Of a stretch of DNA of 57,193 bases, positions 15,268 to 26,357 are shown piece after piece (the stretch's first letter is position 1; the number at the start of each line of letters is the position of its first letter). The DNA comes from Clostridia bacterium (GTDB lineage: Bacteria; Bacillota; Clostridia; Christensenellales; UBA1242), in assembly GCA_017467895.1 (NCBI GenBank), contig JAFUKB010000010.1:1-57193 (forward strand), read 5' to 3'. The notes beneath the pieces were generated by a model. The model ran no database searches. It was not told the DNA's origin and worked only from the letters and a program-made list of their open reading frames with translations. The position numbers were made by a program, and so were the translations under genes.

Positions 15268-15312
15268 TAAACAAAAAACCGTAACTATGCAAAAGTTGCG
15301 GTTTTTTGTTTA
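15268..15312. terminator. Bidirectional intrinsic terminator
   Basis: aaacaaaaaaccgtaact/agttgcggttttttgttt between convergent genes. Confidence 0.75.
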
Positions 15313-15319
15313 AAAGTTT

Positions 15320-16252
15320 CTACATTTGCTTTGATATAGTAGAATGTTTAATTCTTGGCTTGATTATTATCCAAGCAGTATCTTTTATTTGTGCTCCGTG
15401 ACTGTATCGGAGTATTTCTTTTGTGGTTATTTTATGTTTTCCTAAATGAGATGGTGCAAATGATGAACCCCTATCAAAATCATAATTCGCAACAATTTTG
15501 CCATTTGGATTTAGATTTCTTTCATAAAGCATGTCAACAATTTTAGAAAAAGAGTGCCTGTTGTGTGCGTAATAATCGTAAATGTTAGATAGATATATAA
15601 AATCATATTTGCATTTTAAAACAGTGGGGAATTTGCTAAATTCTGCTGTTATAAATTGTATTGTAATGTTACCTTGGTTTAAAAGTTGTTGCAACATATT
15701 GTATGTTTTTTCATTTCTATAAAATTTGCTGTGCCTGTCATTGTGGTCAATCATAAGCATTTTGTCTTTTATTGCTCTTGCATTAAAACTGCTTGAGTAT
15801 GAGTCTGTGTCAAGGTCTAGCATTAAAGTGTCCCAAAACTGTTTAACTTGAGGACTTAAAAGGTGTGATATTTTTGCATAAATATGCCATTCAAAAAAGT
15901 CATGTTTTATAAAAATTTCATTAAATGTTTTAAAATCGAATATTTTAATTACTGCTAGTTTATATTCAATAAAATATCTAGCAAAAATGTTTGCGTCAAT
16001 AATTGTAATATCTTTGCTACCACGCAAAATTGCATTTATTGCTTGGTCGCCACTTGAGCCTACAGTTAATACTTTTTTGTTAGATAAATTTAATCTTGCA
16101 AAAACTTTTGCTAATTGCTCGTTGCTTATTGCAAAGGCTTTGCCTGTGGTGTAGTTAAAACAATCGTCATAAATCTCTGGCATAAAAAGTTTTTCATATG
16201 CCATATCGTAGTCAGTATTGTTTAAAAATTCAGTGTCTGCTTCGTTAATCAT
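15320..16252 (-). CDS. DUF3419/BtaA-like SAM-dependent transferase
   Basis: VLTVGSSGDQ...IIDAN...EYKLA and YDFIYLSNIYDY motifs typical of this class I SAM-binding family. Confidence 0.7.
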   Translation of the reverse strand: MINEADTEFLNNTDYDMAYEKLFMPEIYDDCFNYTTGKAFAISNEQLAKVFARLNLSNKKVLTVGSSGDQAINAILRGSKDITIIDANIFARYFIEYKLAVIKIFDFKTFNEIFIKHDFFEWHIYAKISHLLSPQVKQFWDTLMLDLDTDSYSSSFNARAIKDKMLMIDHNDRHSKFYRNEKTYNMLQQLLNQGNITIQFITAEFSKFPTVLKCKYDFIYLSNIYDYYAHNRHSFSKIVDMLYERNLNPNGKIVANYDFDRGSSFAPSHLGKHKITTKEILRYSHGAQIKDTAWIIIKPRIKHSTISKQM

Positions 16253-16549
16253 GGGACTCCTAAATTATTTTTTTATTTAAAGCCAAGAGATTGAGATTAT
16301 AGATGATACATGGAAATCTTTATTTTGCGCTTAGCACAAACTTATTCCACTCTTTTACTAACAAAATTTTATCATAAATATTTTATATTTTCAATATGTA
16401 CTTTTTTTAAAAATAAGGAAAAAATGGATAATAACGATTGACCGGAAAATGTAAATTGTATAATATTAAAATATATACTCAAAATGGGTATGTATAATAA
16501 AATTAAGTGAACAATAACCCACAAGGCTTTGGCGTGAACCCGCAACGCC

Positions 16550-16887
16550 CAAAATAACCAGCAACGGTTAAGACAGCATGATGGGTAAGTTAAAACAAAT
16601 TTAAGACACACATAAAAATTTGCACACAAAACTAATTATGCCCATCAAAAAAAGAAGCCAAAATGTGGTCAAGCAAAAAAGTTTTTGTAATTGTTAAAAA
16701 TTGTTTGACAACTTCGCGGGGGGGGGTACACTTAAATAGAAAAATAAAAATAGGAGAATAACATGAAAAACAAATTTGGATTGTGGTTCAACATTGTAAC
16801 CATCTGCCTATGCGTGTGCGCAATAGCCATAGGTGTTTACTCAGCAACCACAGCAAACCTAAACGCCAGTGGTAAACTAGGCTTTAC
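16550..16887 (+). repeat. Shared upstream and 5' coding block of the paralogous cassettes, copy 1
   Basis: Aligns with ~24520-24858; the first 125 coding nt differ at 6 positions. Confidence 0.9.
16705..16732 (+). promoter_or_regulatory. SigA promoter with poly-G9 spacer tract (putative phase-variable)
   Basis: TTGACA (16705-10), acttcgc, G9 (16718-26), TACACT (16727-32); spacer 16 bp. Confidence 0.85.
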
Positions 16888-18199
16888 AGCCCATGGCTGT
16901 GATGTTGATGTAAGTGGCACAATAGTAGGCCACGCAGCAGGTAACACCGCAGATGGCTTGCCAGTAACCGCGCCAGAGAGTTTGGGGGCAACAGTAGAGG
17001 TGCGTAGTGATACAAAAACACTCGACTTAGGCTCACGCTACTTTACAGACATGGCATCAACCGATGGCAGTGCAGAAGATATTGTTGTTACACTCACAGT
17101 AACAAATAAATCAAAATTTGATATAACTGCCGAGATAACTGGTACAACAGTTGCAGAAAATACAGCAATATCAATAACTGCGACACCAGAAAGCCAAATA
17201 ATTGCACAAAACGAAAGTGCAACGGTAACAATTACATTAACGCTAACCAGCACGGCAAGTAACATTGCAATGCCAAGCGCAGATAATGTAAGCATTGATA
17301 TGGAGTTTAATAAGTTTGTAGAAGAAGAATTTCCATTTTATGTAATATCAGAAGCAAATACTGACGAAAAGTTTAACTACTACGGGTATTTAGCAACAAC
17401 GATGGGGCATGCAGTAGAAGAATGTGATAGAACAACCTCGGATCTAGAATGGATTGCATTTGCAGTTCGTGGCACAGGAACCGAGGAAACAGGATTTACA
17501 ACAAAACCAGACTTTATTTCTACACATGAAGCAGAAAACCTAGAAGATGGGGAACAAGTTTATAGTCTGTCAATCACGGGAGCAACCCCTGCAGAAACAT
17601 GGTATAGTCTAAACGGCGTAGATATGACCAATGTAGACTACTCAGGCTATACTTTCTGGTTTATACAACGCTATACAACTATAGGATATTATAGTTTTAA
17701 TGATGACTGGACTGAATATGCTGAGGGCACTCCATTTAACCACTCAGCCGATTTAATGAATAATTATCAAGGAAGTGACATGCAGCAACTCTTGTCAGAA
17801 ACAAGCATGTATATATCGATGACAGGTATAGCAGATTCATATGTTTACGACAGGGCAAAAGCAAGAACAGTAAACGAAACAGATGCGGGGTTAAGTTATG
17901 GTAGTGGCTCTCAAGTGACAACATTTACATCAAAACTATGGCTATTGAATCAAAAAGAATTAGGCTTGTTGAACGGGGACGAAACAATTTATGATAATAC
18001 ATACTCAGAACCAGTAAAGGCATACGGTATAGGGAATGCTACTGGCGATGCCGATGGTAATGGGGCTTTTTGGTGGTTGCGTTCGCCTGACCAAAATATC
18101 GCTCACTATGTGCACTATGTGTACCACGGTGGTTATTTGGGTTCGACCTCTGTGGATGGCAACGGTGGCTTTCGCGCGGCTTTCCAAATAACAATTTAA
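16763..18199 (+). CDS. Exported/surface protein with C-terminal DUF6273/CLec-like (DGR-target-type) domain
   Basis: N-terminal hydrophobic signal ending AIGVYSA and a Thr-rich beta module; then YQGSDM...KLWLLNQKE...WWLRSP...GFRAAFQITI. Confidence 0.8.
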   Translation: MKNKFGLWFNIVTICLCVCAIAIGVYSATTANLNASGKLGFTAHGCDVDVSGTIVGHAAGNTADGLPVTAPESLGATVEVRSDTKTLDLGSRYFTDMASTDGSAEDIVVTLTVTNKSKFDITAEITGTTVAENTAISITATPESQIIAQNESATVTITLTLTSTASNIAMPSADNVSIDMEFNKFVEEEFPFYVISEANTDEKFNYYGYLATTMGHAVEECDRTTSDLEWIAFAVRGTGTEETGFTTKPDFISTHEAENLEDGEQVYSLSITGATPAETWYSLNGVDMTNVDYSGYTFWFIQRYTTIGYYSFNDDWTEYAEGTPFNHSADLMNNYQGSDMQQLLSETSMYISMTGIADSYVYDRAKARTVNETDAGLSYGSGSQVTTFTSKLWLLNQKELGLLNGDETIYDNTYSEPVKAYGIGNATGDADGNGAFWWLRSPDQNIAHYVHYVYHGGYLGSTSVDGNGGFRAAFQITI

Positions 18200-18217
18200 A
18201 ACAAATATAATGATGAG

Positions 18218-18261
18218 TAAGAAAACACTCGTTGCATGCGCGTTATTCTTGCATTCTTAAA
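18218..18261 (-). repeat. 44-bp dispersed intergenic repeat, copy 2
   Basis: Inverted copy of 8618-8661 (5 mismatches). Confidence 0.8.
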
Positions 18262-18262
18262 T

Positions 18263-18302
18263 AAAAACCAAGACTTTTTAAAATTTAAGTCTTGGTTTTT
18301 TT
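18263..18302. terminator. Intrinsic terminator (bidirectional)
   Basis: 14-bp inverted repeat aaaaaccaagactt/aagtcttggttttt. Confidence 0.8.
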
Positions 18303-18335
18303 GTTCTATCATATTTCAAATAAATATTTATCAAT

Positions 18336-18561
18336 TAAAAGAAAAAACACGGGCAAAAGGCGAAGAAAAGTGCTTGCAATTTTCAAGCCCCAAAGCCCGA
18401 TGAAAAAGATATAATAATCATATTTCTTCGGAGAGGGGGCTTCGCAAGAGAGTACCGACCGAGTTGAGAGAAAACGAAACTCGCGTATGGTCGGTAAAAG
18501 AAAAAACACGGGCAAAAGGCGAAGAAAAGTGCTTGCAATTTTCAAGCCCCAAAGCCCGATG
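18336..18561. repeat. Perfect 67-bp direct repeat pair (18336-18402 and 18495-18561) with a 92-bp structured spacer
   Basis: taaaagaaaaaacacgggc...caaagcccgatg is identical in both copies; lies 9 nt from the tRNA 3' end. Confidence 0.92.
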
Positions 18562-18570
18562 TTTTTTCTG

Positions 18571-18658
18571 TGGTGCGACTAACAAGACTCGAACTTGCAC
18601 GAGCATTAAAGCCACAAGCGTCTGAAACTTGCGCGTCTACCAATTCCGCCATAGTCGC
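18571..18658 (-). tRNA. tRNA-Leu (CAG)
   Basis: 88-nt cloverleaf GCGACTA...TAGTCGC-ACCA; anticodon loop TTCAGAC, long variable arm, T-loop TTCGAGT; promoter TTGCGT-17-TACAAT. Confidence 0.97.
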
Positions 18659-18712
18659 ATATATGGCATATTGTAGTATATTTTTTTTAAAAACGCAAGT
18701 GTGTTTTGCTTG

Positions 18713-19279
18713 TTAGCGTCTATAGTTGTTTAATAAATTTTTAATAAGTGTAAGTTCTGCAGTGTTTTTAATTATTTGTTCGTTTATTTGTTGCTTTAAT
18801 TTTGGGCAAATGTCATAGCCTAGAGCATTTTTTGCCAAATTAATTCCGCCTTCATGGTGATATATTAATGCTTGCAAATATAAAGCGTTTAGGTTATTGT
18901 TTGCCGAAATTGAATTTAGTTTTGTAATCATGTTGGTGATAATCTCAATGGCTTTGCGCTGATACAGGTTTACATCGCGCTCGCTGTTCGTATGGCATGT
19001 ACATTCGTCTATAATTGACCTTAAATATTCCATTGAGGCATTTTGATTTTCAATAATTGCTTTTGCGAGGGTTTCAATATCTACATCTGTTGTATATTTT
19101 AAAATGTTTTCACTTAAACTTATTGCTCCCTCTTTATGAGGAAGAATTTGCTGTATGTAGGTTTGCGAAATGCTGTTGCAGGGTTCAATGGCAAACATTT
19201 GGTTCTTCATGTTGTCAACAATTTGATAATATAAATCTAAATATTCTTTGCTATTGTCACTAAGTTTTTTTATTAACAT
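18713..19279 (-). CDS. DUF305 (ferritin-like) domain protein
   Basis: Twin motifs PHKEGAI...LAKAIIENQ and YHHEGGINLAK. Confidence 0.75.
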   Translation of the reverse strand: MLIKKLSDNSKEYLDLYYQIVDNMKNQMFAIEPCNSISQTYIQQILPHKEGAISLSENILKYTTDVDIETLAKAIIENQNASMEYLRSIIDECTCHTNSERDVNLYQRKAIEIITNMITKLNSISANNNLNALYLQALIYHHEGGINLAKNALGYDICPKLKQQINEQIIKNTAELTLIKNLLNNYRR

Positions 19280-19461
19280 AAAATATCCTCCATTTTGATT
19301 ATTATGCTGGTTGAATGTTTTTTGTTAATTTAAAATTGTTTTTTGAAATTATATTTGTTTAAAATGTAATTATTATATTTTTTTGTAAGTAAGTTTTGTA
19401 AGTGATTGAAAGGTTGCAAATTGTTATTTTAATTTGCTATAATTATTAAAAAAGGTTGGTT

Positions 19462-20115
19462 ATGTTTAAAAGATTTAGACAAATAAGAAAATTAAATAAC
19501 TCAAAACTTGTAGATGATGAGGTTTATGAAAAAGATGCTAATGGGCGAGGCATAATTGATGTTGGGGCTGAAAATTACGAAGACATTTTTTCGTATTATG
19601 ACCTTAACAATACAAATGTGTTAGATTGGGAATTTGAAGAGTTTTTAGATGCAAAAGCCGATGCAATTCCAATGTCGGAAGAACTTGCTCTTCATTTTCA
19701 TGTTAAAGATGCAACTGAACAAAAGTGCGAAGAAATTGACAAAGCGATTAAAGATAACTATAAACGCAAACTAAAAGCAATAAACAGGCAAATGCATAGA
19801 AACACAATGTTTTCAATTTATATGCTAATTTTGGCAGTTGTGGCTTTTGCAATTTATATTCCACTTGCAATGTCAAATGTTCACTTTGCTATTGTAGAGG
19901 TGTTTGATATTGTTGCTTGGGTGTTTGTTTGGGAAGCGGTTGATAATCATTTTTTAACAAGGCGCAATTTGCAAAAGGAAAGGTTAAAAAAATATCGCTT
20001 TATTAGAGCAGATATAGAGGTGTTGGAATATAAACGCAAATCTAACACGGTTAAATCAAAACAATACGGAATTAAAAAGGTTAAAGAAAACAATGCAAAT
20101 AGAACTCAAAAATGA
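19462..20115 (+). CDS. Hypothetical membrane protein (2 TM)
   Basis: Two hydrophobic helices ending IVAWVFVWEAVD; overlaps the next gene. Start could be 19456 or 19462. Confidence 0.7.
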   Translation: MFKRFRQIRKLNNSKLVDDEVYEKDANGRGIIDVGAENYEDIFSYYDLNNTNVLDWEFEEFLDAKADAIPMSEELALHFHVKDATEQKCEEIDKAIKDNYKRKLKAINRQMHRNTMFSIYMLILAVVAFAIYIPLAMSNVHFAIVEVFDIVAWVFVWEAVDNHFLTRRNLQKERLKKYRFIRADIEVLEYKRKSNTVKSKQYGIKKVKENNANRTQK

Positions 20116-20764
20116 TGAAAAAAAAGTTAAGACAATAATTGATTACTATATTTTAACGAACAAACTAAAAGATTTGGTTCGCACCGGCTGGAAACGCTGG
20201 GGTGTTAAGCGTGAAAGGGTGGAATCTGTTGCTGAACATATTTATGGCACTTGCATGCTTGCTGTTGCTATTTGGTCAGAAACCTTGCCAGAGGTTAACA
20301 TTAGCGAAGTTATTTTAATGCTTGCCCTTCATGAAACTGAAGAAAATATAATTAGCGACATAACCCCATACGACAGTGAAGAAAAACAAAAACTAAAGCA
20401 ATCGGGCGAAAAAGCGGTTAAAGCCATATTTAAAAATTTGGTGGCAAAAGATGTATATTTTAAACTTGTGCACGATTTTGATACGCTTGCAACCCCTGAG
20501 GCGATTTTTGCGCGCAAGTGTGATAAACTAGAAAGCGATTTGCAAGCAAGGCTGTATAGCGATGAGGGCGTTTTGCTTTATGAAAATGCTGATGAAATAA
20601 AAAATCATGAACAAATAGTTGAGTGGCACAATCAAGGAATAACCGATGTTGCTGACTATTTTGTGCTTGCAGATAGGCATAATTATGAAGATGGAGATAT
20701 ATTTTTTAAAATAAGCAAATATATTGAGGGCAAAAAAATAATAAAAAGTAAAAAGGGAAAATAA
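20093..20764 (+). CDS. HD-domain hydrolase (HD_3/5'-deoxynucleotidase-like)
   Basis: Motifs LKDLVRTGW, ESVAEH, LALHE, DITP and CDKLE. Confidence 0.88.
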   Translation: MQIELKNDEKKVKTIIDYYILTNKLKDLVRTGWKRWGVKRERVESVAEHIYGTCMLAVAIWSETLPEVNISEVILMLALHETEENIISDITPYDSEEKQKLKQSGEKAVKAIFKNLVAKDVYFKLVHDFDTLATPEAIFARKCDKLESDLQARLYSDEGVLLYENADEIKNHEQIVEWHNQGITDVADYFVLADRHNYEDGDIFFKISKYIEGKKIIKSKKGK

Positions 20765-21496
20765 ATGCAAAACATATTGTTTGGTGTGTCATATTTGGGG
20801 ACTAATTACGCAGGTTGGCAAAAACAAGACAATGCACTCTCTATTCAAGAGGTTATTGAAAATGCTTTTGAACAAATATGTAACAAAAAGGTAGAGATTT
20901 TTGCAAGTGGGCGCACTGATGCTGGTGTGCATGCATATGAGCAATGCTTTAATGCACAGGTTAACTTTCAACCAGTTTCAAAATTGCCACAAGCCTTAAA
21001 CTCAAAATTGCCACAAGATATAAGAATTTTGTGGGCAAAGCCGGTGGGAAACGATTTCCACGCAAGATTTTCGGCACATAAAAAAACATATATTTATAGG
21101 CTAAGCACTCAAGAAATAGAAAGCCCATTTGATTCTTTTCTTACAACATATGTTCCGCATAACTTAAATTTTAAAGCAATGCAACAGGCATGTGAGCATT
21201 TTTTGGGAGAACATAATTTTAAATCATTTTGCTCAGCACATACCACAGCAAAAGATTTTATTAGAACAATATATAGTTTAAATATTAACAAAACAGATAA
21301 TGTTTATGAGTTCGAAATATGCGGGAATGGCTTTTTGTATAACATGGTTAGAATAATTGTTGGAACACTTGTTGAGGTAGGCAGGGGCAAAATTAAACCC
21401 GAACAAATTGCAGACATTTTTGCAAAACAAGATAGAAAATTTGCAGGAAAAACTATGCCCGCAAAAGCACTCATATTAAAAAAAGTTGACTACTAA
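20765..21496 (+). CDS. truA: tRNA pseudouridine(38-40) synthase
   Basis: Motifs YLGTNYAGWQKQ, SGRTDAGVHA, FHARFSA and GFLYNMVRIIVG. Confidence 0.97.
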   Translation: MQNILFGVSYLGTNYAGWQKQDNALSIQEVIENAFEQICNKKVEIFASGRTDAGVHAYEQCFNAQVNFQPVSKLPQALNSKLPQDIRILWAKPVGNDFHARFSAHKKTYIYRLSTQEIESPFDSFLTTYVPHNLNFKAMQQACEHFLGEHNFKSFCSAHTTAKDFIRTIYSLNINKTDNVYEFEICGNGFLYNMVRIIVGTLVEVGRGKIKPEQIADIFAKQDRKFAGKTMPAKALILKKVDY

Positions 21497-21564
21497 TAGA
21501 TTATTTGTTGACTAAAACTTTTTTAATGTATTAAAATAAGTCTAAAAGGTAGGAGTAAAATCTC

Positions 21565-22203
21565 GTGAGAAAACTTAAATTAATTACAACTTGTGCTTCA
21601 CTTGTGCTGATGGTTGCCTTTATGGCTTTTGGCGTTTATGCATTGCAATCAGCAACCATGACGGTTAGTGGCACAGTTTCATATCAATGTACTAATGTTG
21701 CAGTTAAGGTTACTTATGGCCTTGTTGGTGGCACAACTTATGGTCCTTTTATTAGCCAAGAATCTGACCCAATTTCATGGAAAGATGAAAATGGCAATGC
21801 AGTTACATTCACAAACGGCGCTTTTGATGGCAAACTTCTTCCAGATGTTGCTTTTACGGAAGCAAACTTAACATGCACATATTTTATTACTGTTGAAAGT
21901 TTGCACGGCATGGCTATTGGCTTAAACTTTGGTTATAAATGGGCAAACACCGTTGGCAATGCAATCTCGGCGTCGGCAAAAGTTTATATTGGCGATGTTA
22001 ACAGCACGCAAGAAGCAACTGTTGAATTTAATCCAACAACTGGTATTGCAACGGCATATGAACTAGGTGCAAAAGCAACCCAAACATTAAAAGTCACTTT
22101 AACATTGGGTTCTACTAAATTAGATAATAAAGCGTCTGGCAATTTCCAGATGGCAATGGCGTCGGCTGTTCAGTTGACCGATGTGCCTGCAATATCTTTT
22201 TAG
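21565..22203 (+). CDS. Exported beta-rich protein; N-terminus resembles the cassette genes
   Basis: GTG start with AGGAG; AFGVYALQSATMTVSGTVSY resembles AIGVYSATTANLNASGKLGF. Confidence 0.7.
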   Translation: MRKLKLITTCASLVLMVAFMAFGVYALQSATMTVSGTVSYQCTNVAVKVTYGLVGGTTYGPFISQESDPISWKDENGNAVTFTNGAFDGKLLPDVAFTEANLTCTYFITVESLHGMAIGLNFGYKWANTVGNAISASAKVYIGDVNSTQEATVEFNPTTGIATAYELGAKATQTLKVTLTLGSTKLDNKASGNFQMAMASAVQLTDVPAISF

Positions 22204-22204
22204 T

Positions 22205-22894
22205 CTAGTCAAAATATTCTAAAACCCCAAGAAGTATGCTGTAGCATACTTCTTTTTTGTACTCTTCACTAATAAGCAATGCTTCTTCGTCAGCGTTGGA
22301 TAAATAACCGCATTCAACCAAAACCGATGGGCATTTTACAGCATTTAAAACATAGTAATCGCCAACAGAGGTTGCTTTTCGTGCTTGGTTTAAATATTTA
22401 ATAAAGTATTTTTGAATGTTGTCCGCAAGTGTTTTGCTGGGCTCGTCACTTTCGCCATAAAACACTTGTGCGCCTCGAGCATTGCCATTAAAACTGTTCA
22501 TGTGTAGTGAAATGACAAAATCAGTGTTGGCGTTTTCTATTAACTCTTTGCGCTTTTGCATATCGTCCTTTTTTTTGTTGGTTGCAAATGGGCTGTAAAG
22601 ACCACCACTTGTGGTGCGTGTCATTATAACATCAAAACCAAACTCTTGCATTAAATCGCGCAAGGTTAGAGCATAGTCCAAATTTAATTCCGACTCAATA
22701 ACCCCAGTAGAAATTCCAACGCTTCCGCCGTCAATGCCACCATGCCCAGCATCAATAACAACCGTGTATTGTGCCTTGGGTGAGATTGCAGTTGCAAGAG
22801 ATGGTATAAGTGGTACACATGCCAAGATTAAAAATAAAATAAGTCCGATTAAAATACTTTTTTTGTTAATTACAATGTAATTTATTTTTTTCAT
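22205..22894 (-). CDS. cwlD: N-acetylmuramoyl-L-alanine amidase (CwlD-like)
   Basis: N-terminal TM; motifs IDAGHGGIDGG, ESELNL, KKDDMQKR, SLHMNS and LVECGYLSN. Confidence 0.8.
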   Translation of the reverse strand: MKKINYIVINKKSILIGLILFLILACVPLIPSLATAISPKAQYTVVIDAGHGGIDGGSVGISTGVIESELNLDYALTLRDLMQEFGFDVIMTRTTSGGLYSPFATNKKKDDMQKRKELIENANTDFVISLHMNSFNGNARGAQVFYGESDEPSKTLADNIQKYFIKYLNQARKATSVGDYYVLNAVKCPSVLVECGYLSNADEEALLISEEYKKEVCYSILLGVLEYFD

Positions 22895-22977
22895 AAAATA
22901 TATATATGTTTTAAAGTAATTAATATGAAGATTTTATGATAACTTTTTCTTCCATTTAAAAGATACAAATTTAAAGT

Positions 22978-23013
22978 AAAAAGCCATATGTCCAATTCAA
23001 ACGGATATATGGC
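22978..23013. terminator. Intrinsic terminator
   Basis: Stem gccatatgtcc/ggatatatggc flanked by A/T runs. Confidence 0.6.
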
Positions 23014-23064
23014 AATTTTTTTAGAATACGATACAGTTATTATTCAGTGTTTTTATATGACTTT

Positions 23065-24387
23065 TTAACGGCTGTGCTGATTCATACGCGCCACTGCACG
23101 GCTTTTGCTTTCACTTAAAATGTGAGAAGGAATAGGTGCCTGATGAGATATGTTTTTTTCGTTGTAAGAAAGCGTGTGGTCTTTGCTTATTTCTGCCTTG
23201 CTAAGGAGCAAATATGGCAAAGAGTGGTCGCCACGCTGATAAGAGCAGGCGTCCCAACAAGGGTCGCAGTAGTAAATTCCGCCGGGTCTGTCAATTCTGC
23301 AAATTGAATGATAGCCTGTTTGTGGAAGAGTTATAAAGGTATATTCACTGTCAGTTGAGGCTTCGCTCATGTGGAGAGTGTCTTCTCCTGCAATGCAAGA
23401 TGTGTTTGAGGTGTGAATTCCTTTTAGTGCAAGCATATATTGCATGGCACGAGTGTACCCCTCGCACACACAACAGTTATACATAAATGCATTATAAGTG
23501 CCGTTTGCACCTCGCGCAGGCCCTAAAATAATTCCACCTTCAGATTTTTGCCCACGCAAGTTAGACTCAAGTGCATCATAGTTATATTTAACATTTTTTG
23601 CAAGCCAAGCATCAACCATGGCAACCGTGTCAAGTTCGGTTAGCCCCTTGCAATGCGTGGTAACCACTTCAAGTGCCTTTTTGTGAAGTTGTTGCATTTG
23701 CGCATTGGTAATTTTAATTGTGTTGTTTCCGCATGTTTCTGTCCAATGGCAAAAAAGGTCAATGTCTTTTAATTTGGCAAGAGCCTGCTCGTTTGTTGCG
23801 CCGGTTGCCGTTTTAAAACCAATAGCCTGAGGGAAAAGCAAAACATCTAAATTTGTTTCGTATAAGTTTGCATTTTCTGCAATAAATTGGTCAAAGTTTT
23901 TAATTGGCAACAAATTGTTTGAATCATAAAGTGTTAACGAGCCAATAGTTCTGTTTTGTGCAAGACCAATAACCTCGGTAAGTTCTTCGTTTCGGGTGAG
24001 TTCAAGGGTTTCAAGTTTGCTCATGCGAGAAATGTCCAAAGTTGTTATAAGCCTTTGATTGTTAATGGTTAAGTGTTTTAAGTTGGATAACTTTTCTATT
24101 TCAAAAATGTCGCTATCTTTTATGCTTTGCAAATCTCTTGATGCTTTGTAACTTGTGTTGCCGGTGGTTACAATAGAAAGTGAGGTTAAGTTTCTTAAAT
24201 AAGATAACCCCTTTAAAGAACCAGAATGATTTTTTAAACTTAAGTGAGTAACTAAATCAAGTTCTTCTTGCGAAAAAGCCGTGTCAACAAGCCCATATCT
24301 TGCGCGCTTTGGCACGCCCTTTTTTTCTAATGCTTGCCAAACTAATGTAGACAGTTCCCAAGAAAGTTTAATTTTTTCTTCTGCCAT
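23065..24387 (-). CDS. Leucine-rich-repeat plus transglutaminase-like domain protein
   Basis: LRRs (LRNLTSLSI, LSNLKHLTI, MSKLETLEL); NVKYNYD, VCEGYTRAMQYML, HSI and YYCDPCWD give a Cys-His-Asp triad. Promoter TTGACA-17-TAAAAT. Confidence 0.8.
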   Translation of the reverse strand: MAEEKIKLSWELSTLVWQALEKKGVPKRARYGLVDTAFSQEELDLVTHLSLKNHSGSLKGLSYLRNLTSLSIVTTGNTSYKASRDLQSIKDSDIFEIEKLSNLKHLTINNQRLITTLDISRMSKLETLELTRNEELTEVIGLAQNRTIGSLTLYDSNNLLPIKNFDQFIAENANLYETNLDVLLFPQAIGFKTATGATNEQALAKLKDIDLFCHWTETCGNNTIKITNAQMQQLHKKALEVVTTHCKGLTELDTVAMVDAWLAKNVKYNYDALESNLRGQKSEGGIILGPARGANGTYNAFMYNCCVCEGYTRAMQYMLALKGIHTSNTSCIAGEDTLHMSEASTDSEYTFITLPQTGYHSICRIDRPGGIYYCDPCWDACSYQRGDHSLPYLLLSKAEISKDHTLSYNEKNISHQAPIPSHILSESKSRAVARMNQHSR

Positions 24388-24519
24388 AACCCCTCCAAAT
24401 ATATATGTATTTTAATATAAAGACTCTGATTTGTCAATGTGCGATAATAAGAGTCAAAAGATTACCTTTGTTCAATAAAAAATGAAATCATGTCATAAAA
24501 AATTGACTCACGACGGCAA

Positions 24520-24858
24520 AAATAATAACGAGCAACGGCAAAGAACAACCCTCACGAGCAAAAAGCAAATTTTAATTATACATAACAATTTGCATACAAA
24601 ACCAATTATGCTCATAAAAAAAAGAAGCCAAAATGTGGTCAAGTAAAAAAGTTTTTGCAATTGTTAAAAATCGTTTGACAACTTCGCGGGGGGGGGTACA
24701 CTTAAGTAGAAAAGTGAAAAAAGGAGAAAAAACATGAAAAAGAAATTTGGATTGTGGTTTAACATAGTAACCATCTGCCTATGCGTATGCGCAATAGCCA
24801 TAGGTGTTTACTCGGCAACCACAGCAAACTTAAACGCCAGTGGTAAACTAGGCTTTAC
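24520..24858 (+). repeat. Shared upstream and 5' coding block of the paralogous cassettes, copy 2
   Basis: Aligns with ~16550-16887. Confidence 0.9.
24675..24702 (+). promoter_or_regulatory. SigA promoter with poly-G9 spacer tract (putative phase-variable)
   Basis: TTGACA (24675-80), acttcgc, G9 (24688-96), TACACT (24697-702); identical to 16705-16732. Confidence 0.85.
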
Positions 24859-25978
24859 TGCTCACAACTGTAAGGCTGACATAACTGGCACAATTTATGG
24901 CCATGCAACGGGTAATTCTGCAGATGGATTGCCAGTTGCCGAGGCAGACGCAGAAACATTTGGTACAGTGTCGCTAGATGGCGACACAAAAAGCCTATCG
25001 CTTGGAGCAACTCGATACTTTACTGATATGGCGTCAACCGATGGCAGTGTAGCCCCTATTGTAATAACACTGGCAATAACAAACACATCAAAGTTTGATA
25101 TTGTGGCGAGCGTAACAAGCGCAACAGCAACAAGCCCAGTTGCAATAGAATCTCCAACAGAAGATGTCAAGATAACTCAAAACTCAACCGAAAGCCTAAC
25201 ATTTACATTGACACTAACAAGCACAGCAAATGGAGTAACACCAAGTTCGGATAATGTAAACATATCATTGCATTTAGAAAAGTATGTTTCACCATTCTAT
25301 GTTGCAGATAACAAACTGTTTGTAAACATGGGCACAGACCCAGACACAGGCAACCCAATCAGATGGTATGCAATAGCAAAAGACAATGCTGGTACATTTG
25401 AGACATTAAAATCAACTCAAGTTACAAGTGTGGAAGCAGGCACCTATGTGTTTATCTCAGAATATATTCTTGATTACAGTGATAGTAGTCCATGCATTGA
25501 ATTTAATTCCACAGCAACTTCAAGTAACAACTATGGAGCAAATTATGAAGGTTCAATAATCCAATCATTTGTAAATGGTAATGATGCTAATTCATTATAT
25601 ACTAAGTATAAACTAGGTAATGCTAAATATGCTGATGTATATGGAAATATATTGCCATATCGTTGGGGTGAAGAAGAAATTTCGGATTATATAACGAGTA
25701 GTAAAGTTACATGTCCGGCCAGTGAGAGGCAAACATTATGGCTTTTAAGTAATGCTGAATACATTTTGTGTTTTGGTGATGGTGATACATCTGGTGTGGC
25801 TAAAATGCTTAGTACTAATTTAAACAATAATTGGTGGTTACGTTCTCCGAATAGTTATGAATCTATGGGAGGCTATTGTGATGTCTGGTATGTAAAAGAT
25901 ACCGGAGGACTTGGTTACGAGCCTGTGCCGGGAGGTCGTTTCGGCGTGCGTCCTGCCTTCCAAATAACAATATCATAA
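24734..25978 (+). CDS. Exported/surface protein with C-terminal DUF6273/CLec-like domain; paralog of 16763-18199
   Basis: Near-identical N-terminus; YEGSII...TLWLLSNAE...WWLRSP...GVRPAFQITIS. Confidence 0.8.
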   Translation: MKKKFGLWFNIVTICLCVCAIAIGVYSATTANLNASGKLGFTAHNCKADITGTIYGHATGNSADGLPVAEADAETFGTVSLDGDTKSLSLGATRYFTDMASTDGSVAPIVITLAITNTSKFDIVASVTSATATSPVAIESPTEDVKITQNSTESLTFTLTLTSTANGVTPSSDNVNISLHLEKYVSPFYVADNKLFVNMGTDPDTGNPIRWYAIAKDNAGTFETLKSTQVTSVEAGTYVFISEYILDYSDSSPCIEFNSTATSSNNYGANYEGSIIQSFVNGNDANSLYTKYKLGNAKYADVYGNILPYRWGEEEISDYITSSKVTCPASERQTLWLLSNAEYILCFGDGDTSGVAKMLSTNLNNNWWLRSPNSYESMGGYCDVWYVKDTGGLGYEPVPGGRFGVRPAFQITIS

Positions 25979-26007
25979 GCCTAATTTAATTTTTGATTAT
26001 TAGTGCA

Positions 26008-26080: not shown

Positions 26081-26357
26081 ACTGTTGCCACAAGTTTGAA
26101 CAAGCCGAAGCAGTTGTGCCCAAACACGCAAATACTCCACCAAAGCCACCTTATGGCACATAACTCTTAAACTTAGTGTTGCTACCGTCAGGTTCTCACA
26201 CGGTTCGTAAAAGACTTATTGCATAAGACCTTAATTTCAACATATTTGTGCATAAGTTCGCAAAAGACGGATTGCCCTCAGCATGCGTTATCGACCCCGC
26301 GTATAGTAGATTGCGGGTTACAAGGAACTACTAACTCCCCGCCACAAAGGCAACAGC
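26081..26357 (-). ncRNA. ffs: Large bacterial SRP RNA (scRNA with Alu domain)
   Basis: 5' GCGGGGAG...CCTTGTAACCCGCAATC...GCGGGGTCGA Alu domain; helix 8 GTGAGAACC-TGAC-GGTAGCAAC; 5'/3' ends pair (CTGTTGCC/GGCAACAG); promoter TTGCAC-17-TATAAT. Confidence 0.9.

Follow-up and report, generated by a model that had tools for sequence, protein, structure and literature searches.

The window, by which we mean the whole stretch of 57,193 nt that was analysed, contains two copies of a cassette in which a run of nine G residues lies between predicted promoter hexamers, each copy standing before a gene for a DUF6273 protein. The features, all on the plus strand, are as follows:

16640..16704, plus strand: A/T-rich upstream block conserved among cassettes (…AAAAAAGTTTTTG.AATT.TTAAAAAT.GT), from alignments of the two window copies and of the 19 cassettes of this genome
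16705..16710, plus strand: -35 hexamer TTGACA, perfect consensus, read from the sequence and found by consensus scan
16711..16717, plus strand: non-G part of the spacer, ACTTCGC, 7 nt, read from the sequence
16718..16726, plus strand: G9 homopolymer adjoining the -10, the proposed slippage tract, from the sequence and run counts
16727..16732, plus strand: -10 hexamer TACACT (TAnnnT), from the sequence and consensus scan; the same in 19/19 cassettes of this genome
16752..16756, plus strand: Shine-Dalgarno sequence AGGAG, 6 nt ahead of the ATG, taken from the sequence itself
16763..18199, plus strand: paralogue 1, 478-aa secreted protein with a conserved N-terminal signal/anchor and a C-terminal DUF6273 domain (E = 1e-09)
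24675..24702, plus strand: cassette copy 2, with TTGACA at 24675-24680, ACTTCGC, G9 at 24688-24696 and TACACT at 24697-24702
24734..25978, plus strand: paralogue 2, 414-aa DUF6273 protein

The cassette is called a promoter by its predicted hexamers, which are conserved across the 19 cassettes of this genome and across the genus. The spacer of copy 1 totals 16 bp (TTGACA-7 nt-G9-TACACT, 16705-16732), and a consensus promoter scan independently returned TTGACA-16-TACACT with 10/12 matches. Sequence and scan bear out the first-pass annotation, which had described TTGACA-acttcgc-G9-TACACT with a 16-bp spacer here, and its remark that the window holds no comparable G/C run besides copy 2 also stands: runs of at least 8 occur in the 57-kb window at two loci only, 16718-16726 and 24688-24696, giving 4 overlapping matches where 0.16 were expected and 0 of 100 shuffles reached 4. 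The A/T-rich block at 16640..16704 is possibly an UP-element-like region. The two window copies match almost perfectly over a stretch that begins ~130 nt before the -35 and reaches ~140 nt into the coding region, and beyond it the genes diverge; the first ~45 codons of paralogue 2 are nearly identical to those of paralogue 1, and the remainder is ~39% identical.

Shifted registers that would give 17 bp with G9, taking TTTGAC as the -35 or ACACTT as the -10, were rejected as poor matches. An invertible promoter (inverton) was also dropped, since good flanking inverted repeats were not found around 16400-16900, where the repeats are weak (complementarity of 79% over 19 nt, 76% over 17 nt and 90% over 10 nt). 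The promoter region has no Rfam match; the only ones in the window are a tRNA at 18574-18658 and a large (Bacillus-type) SRP RNA at 26083-26355, both on the minus strand.

The genome to which the window belongs (G000, with the window as contig C1) comprises 871 kb in 48 contigs, has 34.6% GC and is 90% complete. It contains 19 poly-G cassettes, of which the window holds two. Genome-wide, G/C runs number 181 at length 5, 2 at length 6, 1 at length 7, 3 at length 8, 20 at length 9 and 1 at length 10, a spectrum that is bimodal and far above chance. Nineteen of the 25 runs of length at least 7 sit in a cassette of the form TTGACAA-4 nt-GC-Gn-TACACT; the others include three inside open reading frames and one near an ORF start.

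By tract, the 19 cassettes are 17 G9, one G10 and one G8. The G10 cassette, at C22:1101, precedes an intact 462-aa gene and has a 17-bp spacer. The "G8" cassette, on C13, has a substituted A after eight G's; its spacer is still 16 bp, and it shows that substitution does interrupt the run. Spacers are 16 bp in 18 cassettes and 17 bp in one (contig C22). The TTGACA hexamer is unchanged in 19/19 cassettes of this genome and in 12/12 aligned cassettes across the genus, and the non-G part of the spacer differs among copies of this genome by substitution (ACTTCGC, ACGGCGC, ACTTTGC, ATGGCGC) while keeping a constant length of 7 nt. Eleven of the 19 cassettes lie within 600 nt of a contig end, from which it is clear that the repeated 5' block breaks assembly.

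For 18 of the 19 cassettes a readable downstream ORF begins with a near-identical N-terminus (MK[KN]KF.LW.NIVTICLCVCAIAIGVYSATTANLN, or the MKKSIWISITTL… variant), and the nineteenth cassette sits 116 nt from a contig end. Searching with tblastn found 22 paralogue N-termini in this genome, 15 with a cassette within 300 nt upstream and 7 without. DUF6273 was found, at the C-terminus, in all four full-length family members scanned, the one behind the G10 copy included. Across the family the 5' block is nearly identical, and the full proteins are 27-57% identical. The members without a poly-G cassette are at G000 C5:10111, C5:11808, C5:42326, C26:5970, C30:6741, C36:2760 and C41:16984. Two of these, C5:10111 and C26:5970, share a conserved block of another kind upstream (…tatgaaaacatttcaaattttgctttgcgtattcaaaaatgtgtgttaatatgttatatgaaat…), perhaps an ordinary promoter or a regulator site.

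The spacing preferred by ordinary promoters of this genome was taken from all combinations of exact TTGACA, a spacer of 12-23 nt and a TAnnnT hexamer differing from TATAAT at no more than 2 positions, a criterion that TACACT passes; poly-G spacers were left out. For spacers of 12 to 23 nt the counts are 20, 21, 17, 16, 14, 82, 29, 17, 15, 10, 19 and 10. The peak of 82 at 17 bp is about five-fold over a background of ~16 (range 10-21), 18 bp forms a weak peak of 29, and ordinary TTGACA promoters of this genome show no enrichment at 16 bp (14 against the background of ~16). With ordinary promoters peaking at 17 bp and 16 bp at background, G9 is off the optimum and G10 would be optimal. The first-pass claim that copy 1 lies "one G from optimal" therefore agrees with the promoter statistics of the genome itself, 82 at 17 bp as against 14 at 16 bp. 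TACACT is a weak -10, and 16-bp spacers function in many bacteria, so that G9 could be a low rather than an off setting, or could be the working state.

Relatives in the same genus were scanned with a flexible pattern over 11 genomes, the present one included, and spacers were tallied by hand count of the printed rows. Poly-G promoters occur in 9/11 genomes with the present one included, that is, in 8/10 sister species; genomes of the sister species measure 1.0-1.7 Mb. No poly-G promoter was matched by the flexible pattern in G006 and G009, and a reversed-pattern control over the 11 genomes gave zero matches. Matches per genome are 41 in G005, 23 in G010, 19 in G001, 19 in the present genome, 10 in G002, 4 in G008, 3 in G003 and 1 in G004; G007 has 9, nested matches included. 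Counts of 16-bp and 17-bp spacers by hand are 18 and 1 in the present genome, 35 and 1 in G005, 16 and 1 in G001, 14 and 2 in G010, and 10 and 0 in G002; the remaining genus spacers are mostly 15 bp, as in six of those in G010. The arrangement of 7 nt followed by G9 is carried by 10/10 cassettes in G002 and 34/41 in G005. Tracts range from G7 to G10 in the four sister genomes with the most cassettes, and G003 has G11 and G14. Counts across kin and paralogues are not independent, and the genus tallies, like the order-wide ones given below, were parsed by hand.

Two layouts were seen in the genus, both with a 16-bp total: 7 nt, G9 and the -10; and ACGC, G9, 3 nt and TATAAT. In an alignment of 12 cassettes from eight genus genomes the hexamers are in register, the run is displaced by 3 nt, and the flanks have a mean column identity of 48%; the total spacer is 16 bp, or 17 bp in three G10 copies. 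Wherever the downstream genes can be seen, they encode a signal peptide of the same kind. A run that remains uninterrupted at 9 or more while its flanks have fallen to 48% identity has been kept for a long time, as would be expected if mutability were the reason for keeping it. G023, from another genus of the same family, carries 13 cassettes built as TTGACA-AAAATGC-Gn-TA[AG]AAT, one of them ending in AGAATA, with tract lengths of G7 (one), G8 (two), G9 (eight), G10 (one) and G12 (one).

In the wider order, a TTGACA–G≥8–TAnnnT promoter was found in 68 of the 401 genomes sampled, with 0 matches to the reversed-pattern control in each of the 401. Spacers were parsed by hand for 128 unique sites among the matches listed. 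Among these the run adjoins the -10 at 74 sites, 70 of which have 6-11 non-G bases, and the tracts of these 70 listed sites are as follows:

6 non-G bases: G9 ×1
7 non-G bases: G9 ×12, G10 ×3, G12 ×3, G15 ×1, G18 ×1
8 non-G bases: G8 ×1, G9 ×7, G11 ×2
9 non-G bases: G8 ×2, G9 ×22, G10 ×6, G11 ×1
10 non-G bases: G8 ×2, G9 ×4, G10 ×1
11 non-G bases: G9 ×1

Among the matches listed, G9 is thus the commonest tract at each of 7, 8, 9 and 10 non-G bases, and the total spacer of the 70 listed sites is 16 bp at 13, 17 bp at 12, 18 bp at 24 and 19 bp at 15. The idea that a tight G9 mode marks a selected ON length was dropped, since G9 is the mode whatever the rest of the spacer; the mode is probably set by the way poly-G tracts mutate and not by selection for a particular spacer length. 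The tally further suggests that, in consensus, most poly-G promoters lie to one side or the other of the optimum.

A fixed-layout scan of all species representatives gave at least 116 loci. The TAnnnT hexamer adjoins the run at 83 listed sites, with 16 G8, 46 G9, 9 G10, 5 G11, 3 G12, 2 G13, 1 G14 and 1 G19. The taxa among the matches listed include many gut Clostridia, Treponema, Lachnospiraceae, Bacilli, Armatimonadota and Saccharibacteria; seven of the species-representative loci are the same DNA as G023 loci and were not counted as independent. By a crude rule, a signal-peptide-like start was found in 40/53 readable downstream ORFs as against 121/587 control ORFs from the genome of the window. 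JGI metagenome contigs, scanned for the cassette of this genome, yielded 6 loci, none from this organism, in Armatimonadota-like and Lachnospiraceae-like cassettes with G7, G9 and G10. When 154 cassette sites were compared, 12 pairs were alike on both flanks, seven of them identical duplicates of the same DNA. Four flank-alike pairs have equal tracts, all G9/G9 (three paralogue pairs of the present genome and one cross-record pair); the sole flank-alike pair of unequal tract is a cross-species pair in Lachnospiraceae, outside this lineage, with G10 in one member and G9 in the other.

Our preferred reading, to which we give a probability of about 0.6, is that these are switch promoters operated by spacer slippage, with G9 low and G10 high. 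They would make up a family-wide contingency system in which at least 19 genes for secreted lectin-type (DUF6273) surface proteins each have their own sigma-A-type promoter, with a spacer of 7 ordinary bases plus a G9 adjoining the -10. Replication slippage would add or remove one G and so change the length of the spacer. At the resting G9 the spacer, at 16 bp, would be one below the usual 17 bp and the promoter weak or off; a slip of +1 to G10 would bring it to 17 bp and full activity. Switching would be independent for each gene, heritable and reversible, and a clonal population would then display different subsets of the family. With G8-G10 in the 19 cassettes, the tracts fall within the range of at least ~8 units that is associated with hypermutable homopolymers, and tract length differs among paralogues (the G10 of the present genome; G7-G12 in G023) and among species. 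The phase-variation reading of the first-pass annotation is supported in part, by the position of the run in the spacer, the preference for 17 bp, the existence of length variants and the long-kept run; the further assignment of G9 as OFF and G10 as ON is one that we infer.

Mismatch repair bears on how mutable such tracts might be. A search of the 871-kb genome found neither MutS_V nor MutL (DNA_mis_repair) domains, but at 90% completeness this absence is unsafe and reflects either a binning gap or a real loss. MutL is present in 36/36 family relatives, cassette-bearing genomes included, so mismatch repair may damp slippage. Given these two facts, no conclusion was drawn on loss of mismatch repair as a cause of hypermutability.

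A parallel in family organisation is the vlp system of Mycoplasma hyorhinis, a surface multigene family in a small genome, with a homopolymer in each promoter spacer and combinatorial expression; vlp genes have a highly conserved promoter and signal-peptide region followed by divergent mature parts. The present family likewise has many paralogues, each with its own homopolymer promoter, a conserved block of promoter plus signal peptide, and divergent mature regions. The vlp tract is poly-A and its products are lipoproteins with internal tandem repeats, whereas here the tract is poly-G and the products are DUF6273 lectin-type proteins; the two systems are analogous, not homologous.

Poly-G spacers themselves have precedents. 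Passages of PMC7864442 report that tp0126 of Treponema pallidum has a poly-G between -35 and -10 for which 17 nt was shown experimentally to be optimal, that most tprL molecules carry 9 G's, that several paralogous tpr genes each have their own tract, and that function was shown with reporters and fragment-length analysis. The cassettes resemble tp0126, as described there, in having the poly-G within the spacer of a sigma-70-type promoter of a surface-protein gene. In tprL, by the same account, the run overlaps the -10 rather than lying in the spacer, whereas the runs described here are spacer runs of predicted promoters. T. pallidum is a spirochaete pathogen with a handful of loci; the present organism is a Gram-positive-type gut commensal with 19 cassettes, and a sister species has up to 41. 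The same passages (PMC7864442) describe a poly-G between -35 and -10 in Neisseria meningitidis porA, with expression dropping away from 17 bp. That is a single locus in a Gram-negative pathogen, in contrast to a multigene family with a common cassette.

The spectrum of runs can be compared with that of Campylobacter jejuni, for which parts of PMC3401435 give 303 G5, 18 G6, 0 G7 and 4 G8 with a mode at 9, report tracts shown experimentally to switch, and attribute the mode to mutational patterns, G8 undergoing mainly insertions and G11 mainly deletions. Like C. jejuni as portrayed there, the present genome has low GC, many G/C tracts, a mode of 9 and a scarcity of lengths 6-8, the profile of a phasome, and the order-wide mode at G9 whatever else the spacer holds agrees with that case. 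Most C. jejuni tracts (80%) fall within reading frames and affect translation, unlike the present case, in which 19 of the 25 tracts of at least 7 are in promoter spacers. The mechanism proposed here is already known as promoter-spacer phase variation of the porA, tp0126 or vlp type and is not categorically new. The notable feature here is how many cassettes there are per megabase.

Of 14 public runs listed, 12 from 7 studies contain part of the window and supply the population data, all of them assembled contigs from animal gut metagenomes and none of them RNA. Contigs of four runs, from four studies, cover 15300-26000 and have a consensus of G9 at both window tracts, contigs being unable to show minority lengths. 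Among 12 of the 14 indel rows for the contigs of these four runs, none falls in the tract of either window copy, though minor variants are lost from contigs. Single-base indels do occur at 24707-24727, which is 11-31 nt downstream of the tract, at summed depths of ~70-870. The contigs of the four runs break at the repeated cassette; in run X6, depth over the unique flanks is ~35-39x. In practical terms, such cassettes break assemblies, and the consensus tract length in a metagenome-assembled genome masks the state of the population.

Within each of the five genus genomes richest in cassettes, the pattern of 16 bp in almost all cassettes and 17 bp in 0-2 would be compatible with the look of a mostly silent archive that has one or two members expressed, and would fit a working 16-bp state preserved by selection equally well. 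We hold only tentatively, and at less than even odds, that these species keep a largely silent archive of 10-41 lectin-type genes per ~1-Mb genome, each parked one G-slip from optimal spacing. The contrary reading takes G9 (16 bp) as the working state, with the whole family expressed and slips to G8, G10 or longer dimming single genes. G9 is the consensus in 17 of the 19 copies of this genome, in both window copies in four populations and in most cassettes of five genus species, and the two layouts both keep the 16-bp total, a conservation that selection on a working promoter would produce. A design poised one slip from ON predicts the 16-bp total equally, however, and the ordinary promoters of this genome have their five-fold peak at 17 bp with no enrichment at 16 bp (14 against ~16). 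Moreover, other families of the order place the same G9 in 17-, 18- and 19-bp spacers, 18 bp being the commonest among the matches listed, so unless RNA polymerases are widely different in what they prefer, G9 is not the optimal length in all of them. We consider G9 unlikely to be the working state.

It could also be that the G run serves as a fixed element, of the promoter or for binding a regulator, that was duplicated with the cassette; its length would then be no switch, and the copies would be alike through recent duplication or gene conversion. The uniformity of the tract speaks for this (17/19 G9 in the present genome; 7 nt plus G9 in 10/10 cassettes of G002 and 34/41 of G005), as do the contigs of four populations, whose consensus at the window copies is G9, and the clear homogenisation of the cassette and signal-peptide region when compared with the remainder of the gene. 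Yet homologous or analogous cassettes carry anything from G7 to G18, and the displacement of the run by 3 nt between species, with the hexamers in register, argues against a position-specific protein site. The run also persists uninterrupted at G9 or longer across species with 48% flanks, while runs of 6-8 are almost absent from this genome; long runs with a near absence of 6-8 are, in the parts of PMC3401435 that treat them, the signature of tracts kept for mutability in C. jejuni. A fixed element is accordingly quite improbable in our judgement. Least credible, to the point of being nearly negligible, is an artefact of assembly or of Illumina homopolymer reading: every dataset is a metagenome-assembled consensus and poly-G runs are error-prone, but contigs of four independent studies, dozens of genomes assembled separately and JGI contigs of other taxa all show the same G9, and lengths other than 9 were assembled too.

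Phase variation by simple repeats is textbook material for pathogens (Neisseria, Campylobacter, Treponema, Mycoplasma), and in gut commensals attention has gone mainly to invertible promoters. A full-text literature search found no report of poly-G promoter switches in gut Clostridia or before DUF6273 proteins. If the slippage switch works as proposed, a large share of the secreted surface proteins of this lineage would be under stochastic control gene by gene, which would bear on how uncultured small-genome gut bacteria might meet host antibody, phage and changing ligands. Should the archive reading be true as well, any population consensus would have 0-2 genes at the 17-bp setting, the set would be among the densest of phase-variable genes per megabase known, in a commensal rather than a pathogen, and poly-G promoter switches would be in use in about one in six genomes of the order, G9 being the length at which tracts everywhere come to rest by mutation.

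Some further observations concern the cassettes and their surroundings. The leader is 100-210 nt long in about half of the cassettes, compared with 30 nt in the window; the long-leader copies are those at L007:1530-1700 and on C8, C15, C22, C28, C29, C35, C38 and C39. Long leaders start with GTGAAAAG-type repeats, and some continue to TTCACTATT-type repeats; the reverse complement of AGTGAA occurs within the repeats, and folding of the leader is therefore possible. The C13 cassette has a second G8 run 116 nt downstream (G000:C13:8139-8146), inside its long 5' leader. In G023, cassettes at L001:1520-1570, L006, L012 and L022 have the -10 inside an inverted repeat (TAAAATGACCTTGCAA … TTGCAAGGTCATTTTA), which would place a hairpin right at the 5' end of the transcript; nothing alike was seen in the present genome.

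The three intragenic G9/C9 runs of this genome (C46:6380-6388, C3:44001-44009 and C20:33520-33528) are candidates for translational phase variation. The one at G000:C46:6380-6388 is in frame in a UDP-N-acetylglucosamine 2-epimerase (Pfam Epimerase_2, E = 6e-117) and encodes GGG; another in-frame run encodes PPP in an M16-family peptidase; and a third is in frame in a 932-codon BspA-type LRR protein that has a weak DUF6273 match. The genome also encodes two reverse transcriptases of ~360 aa. Among the population data, all four runs have a depth peak over the bin that holds the tRNA, as expected for a conserved gene. In run X6 one contig has 2482 nt of different sequence between positions 22936 and 22981, close to the 3' end of the minus-strand gene 23065-24387, which reads as a strain-level replacement or insertion.
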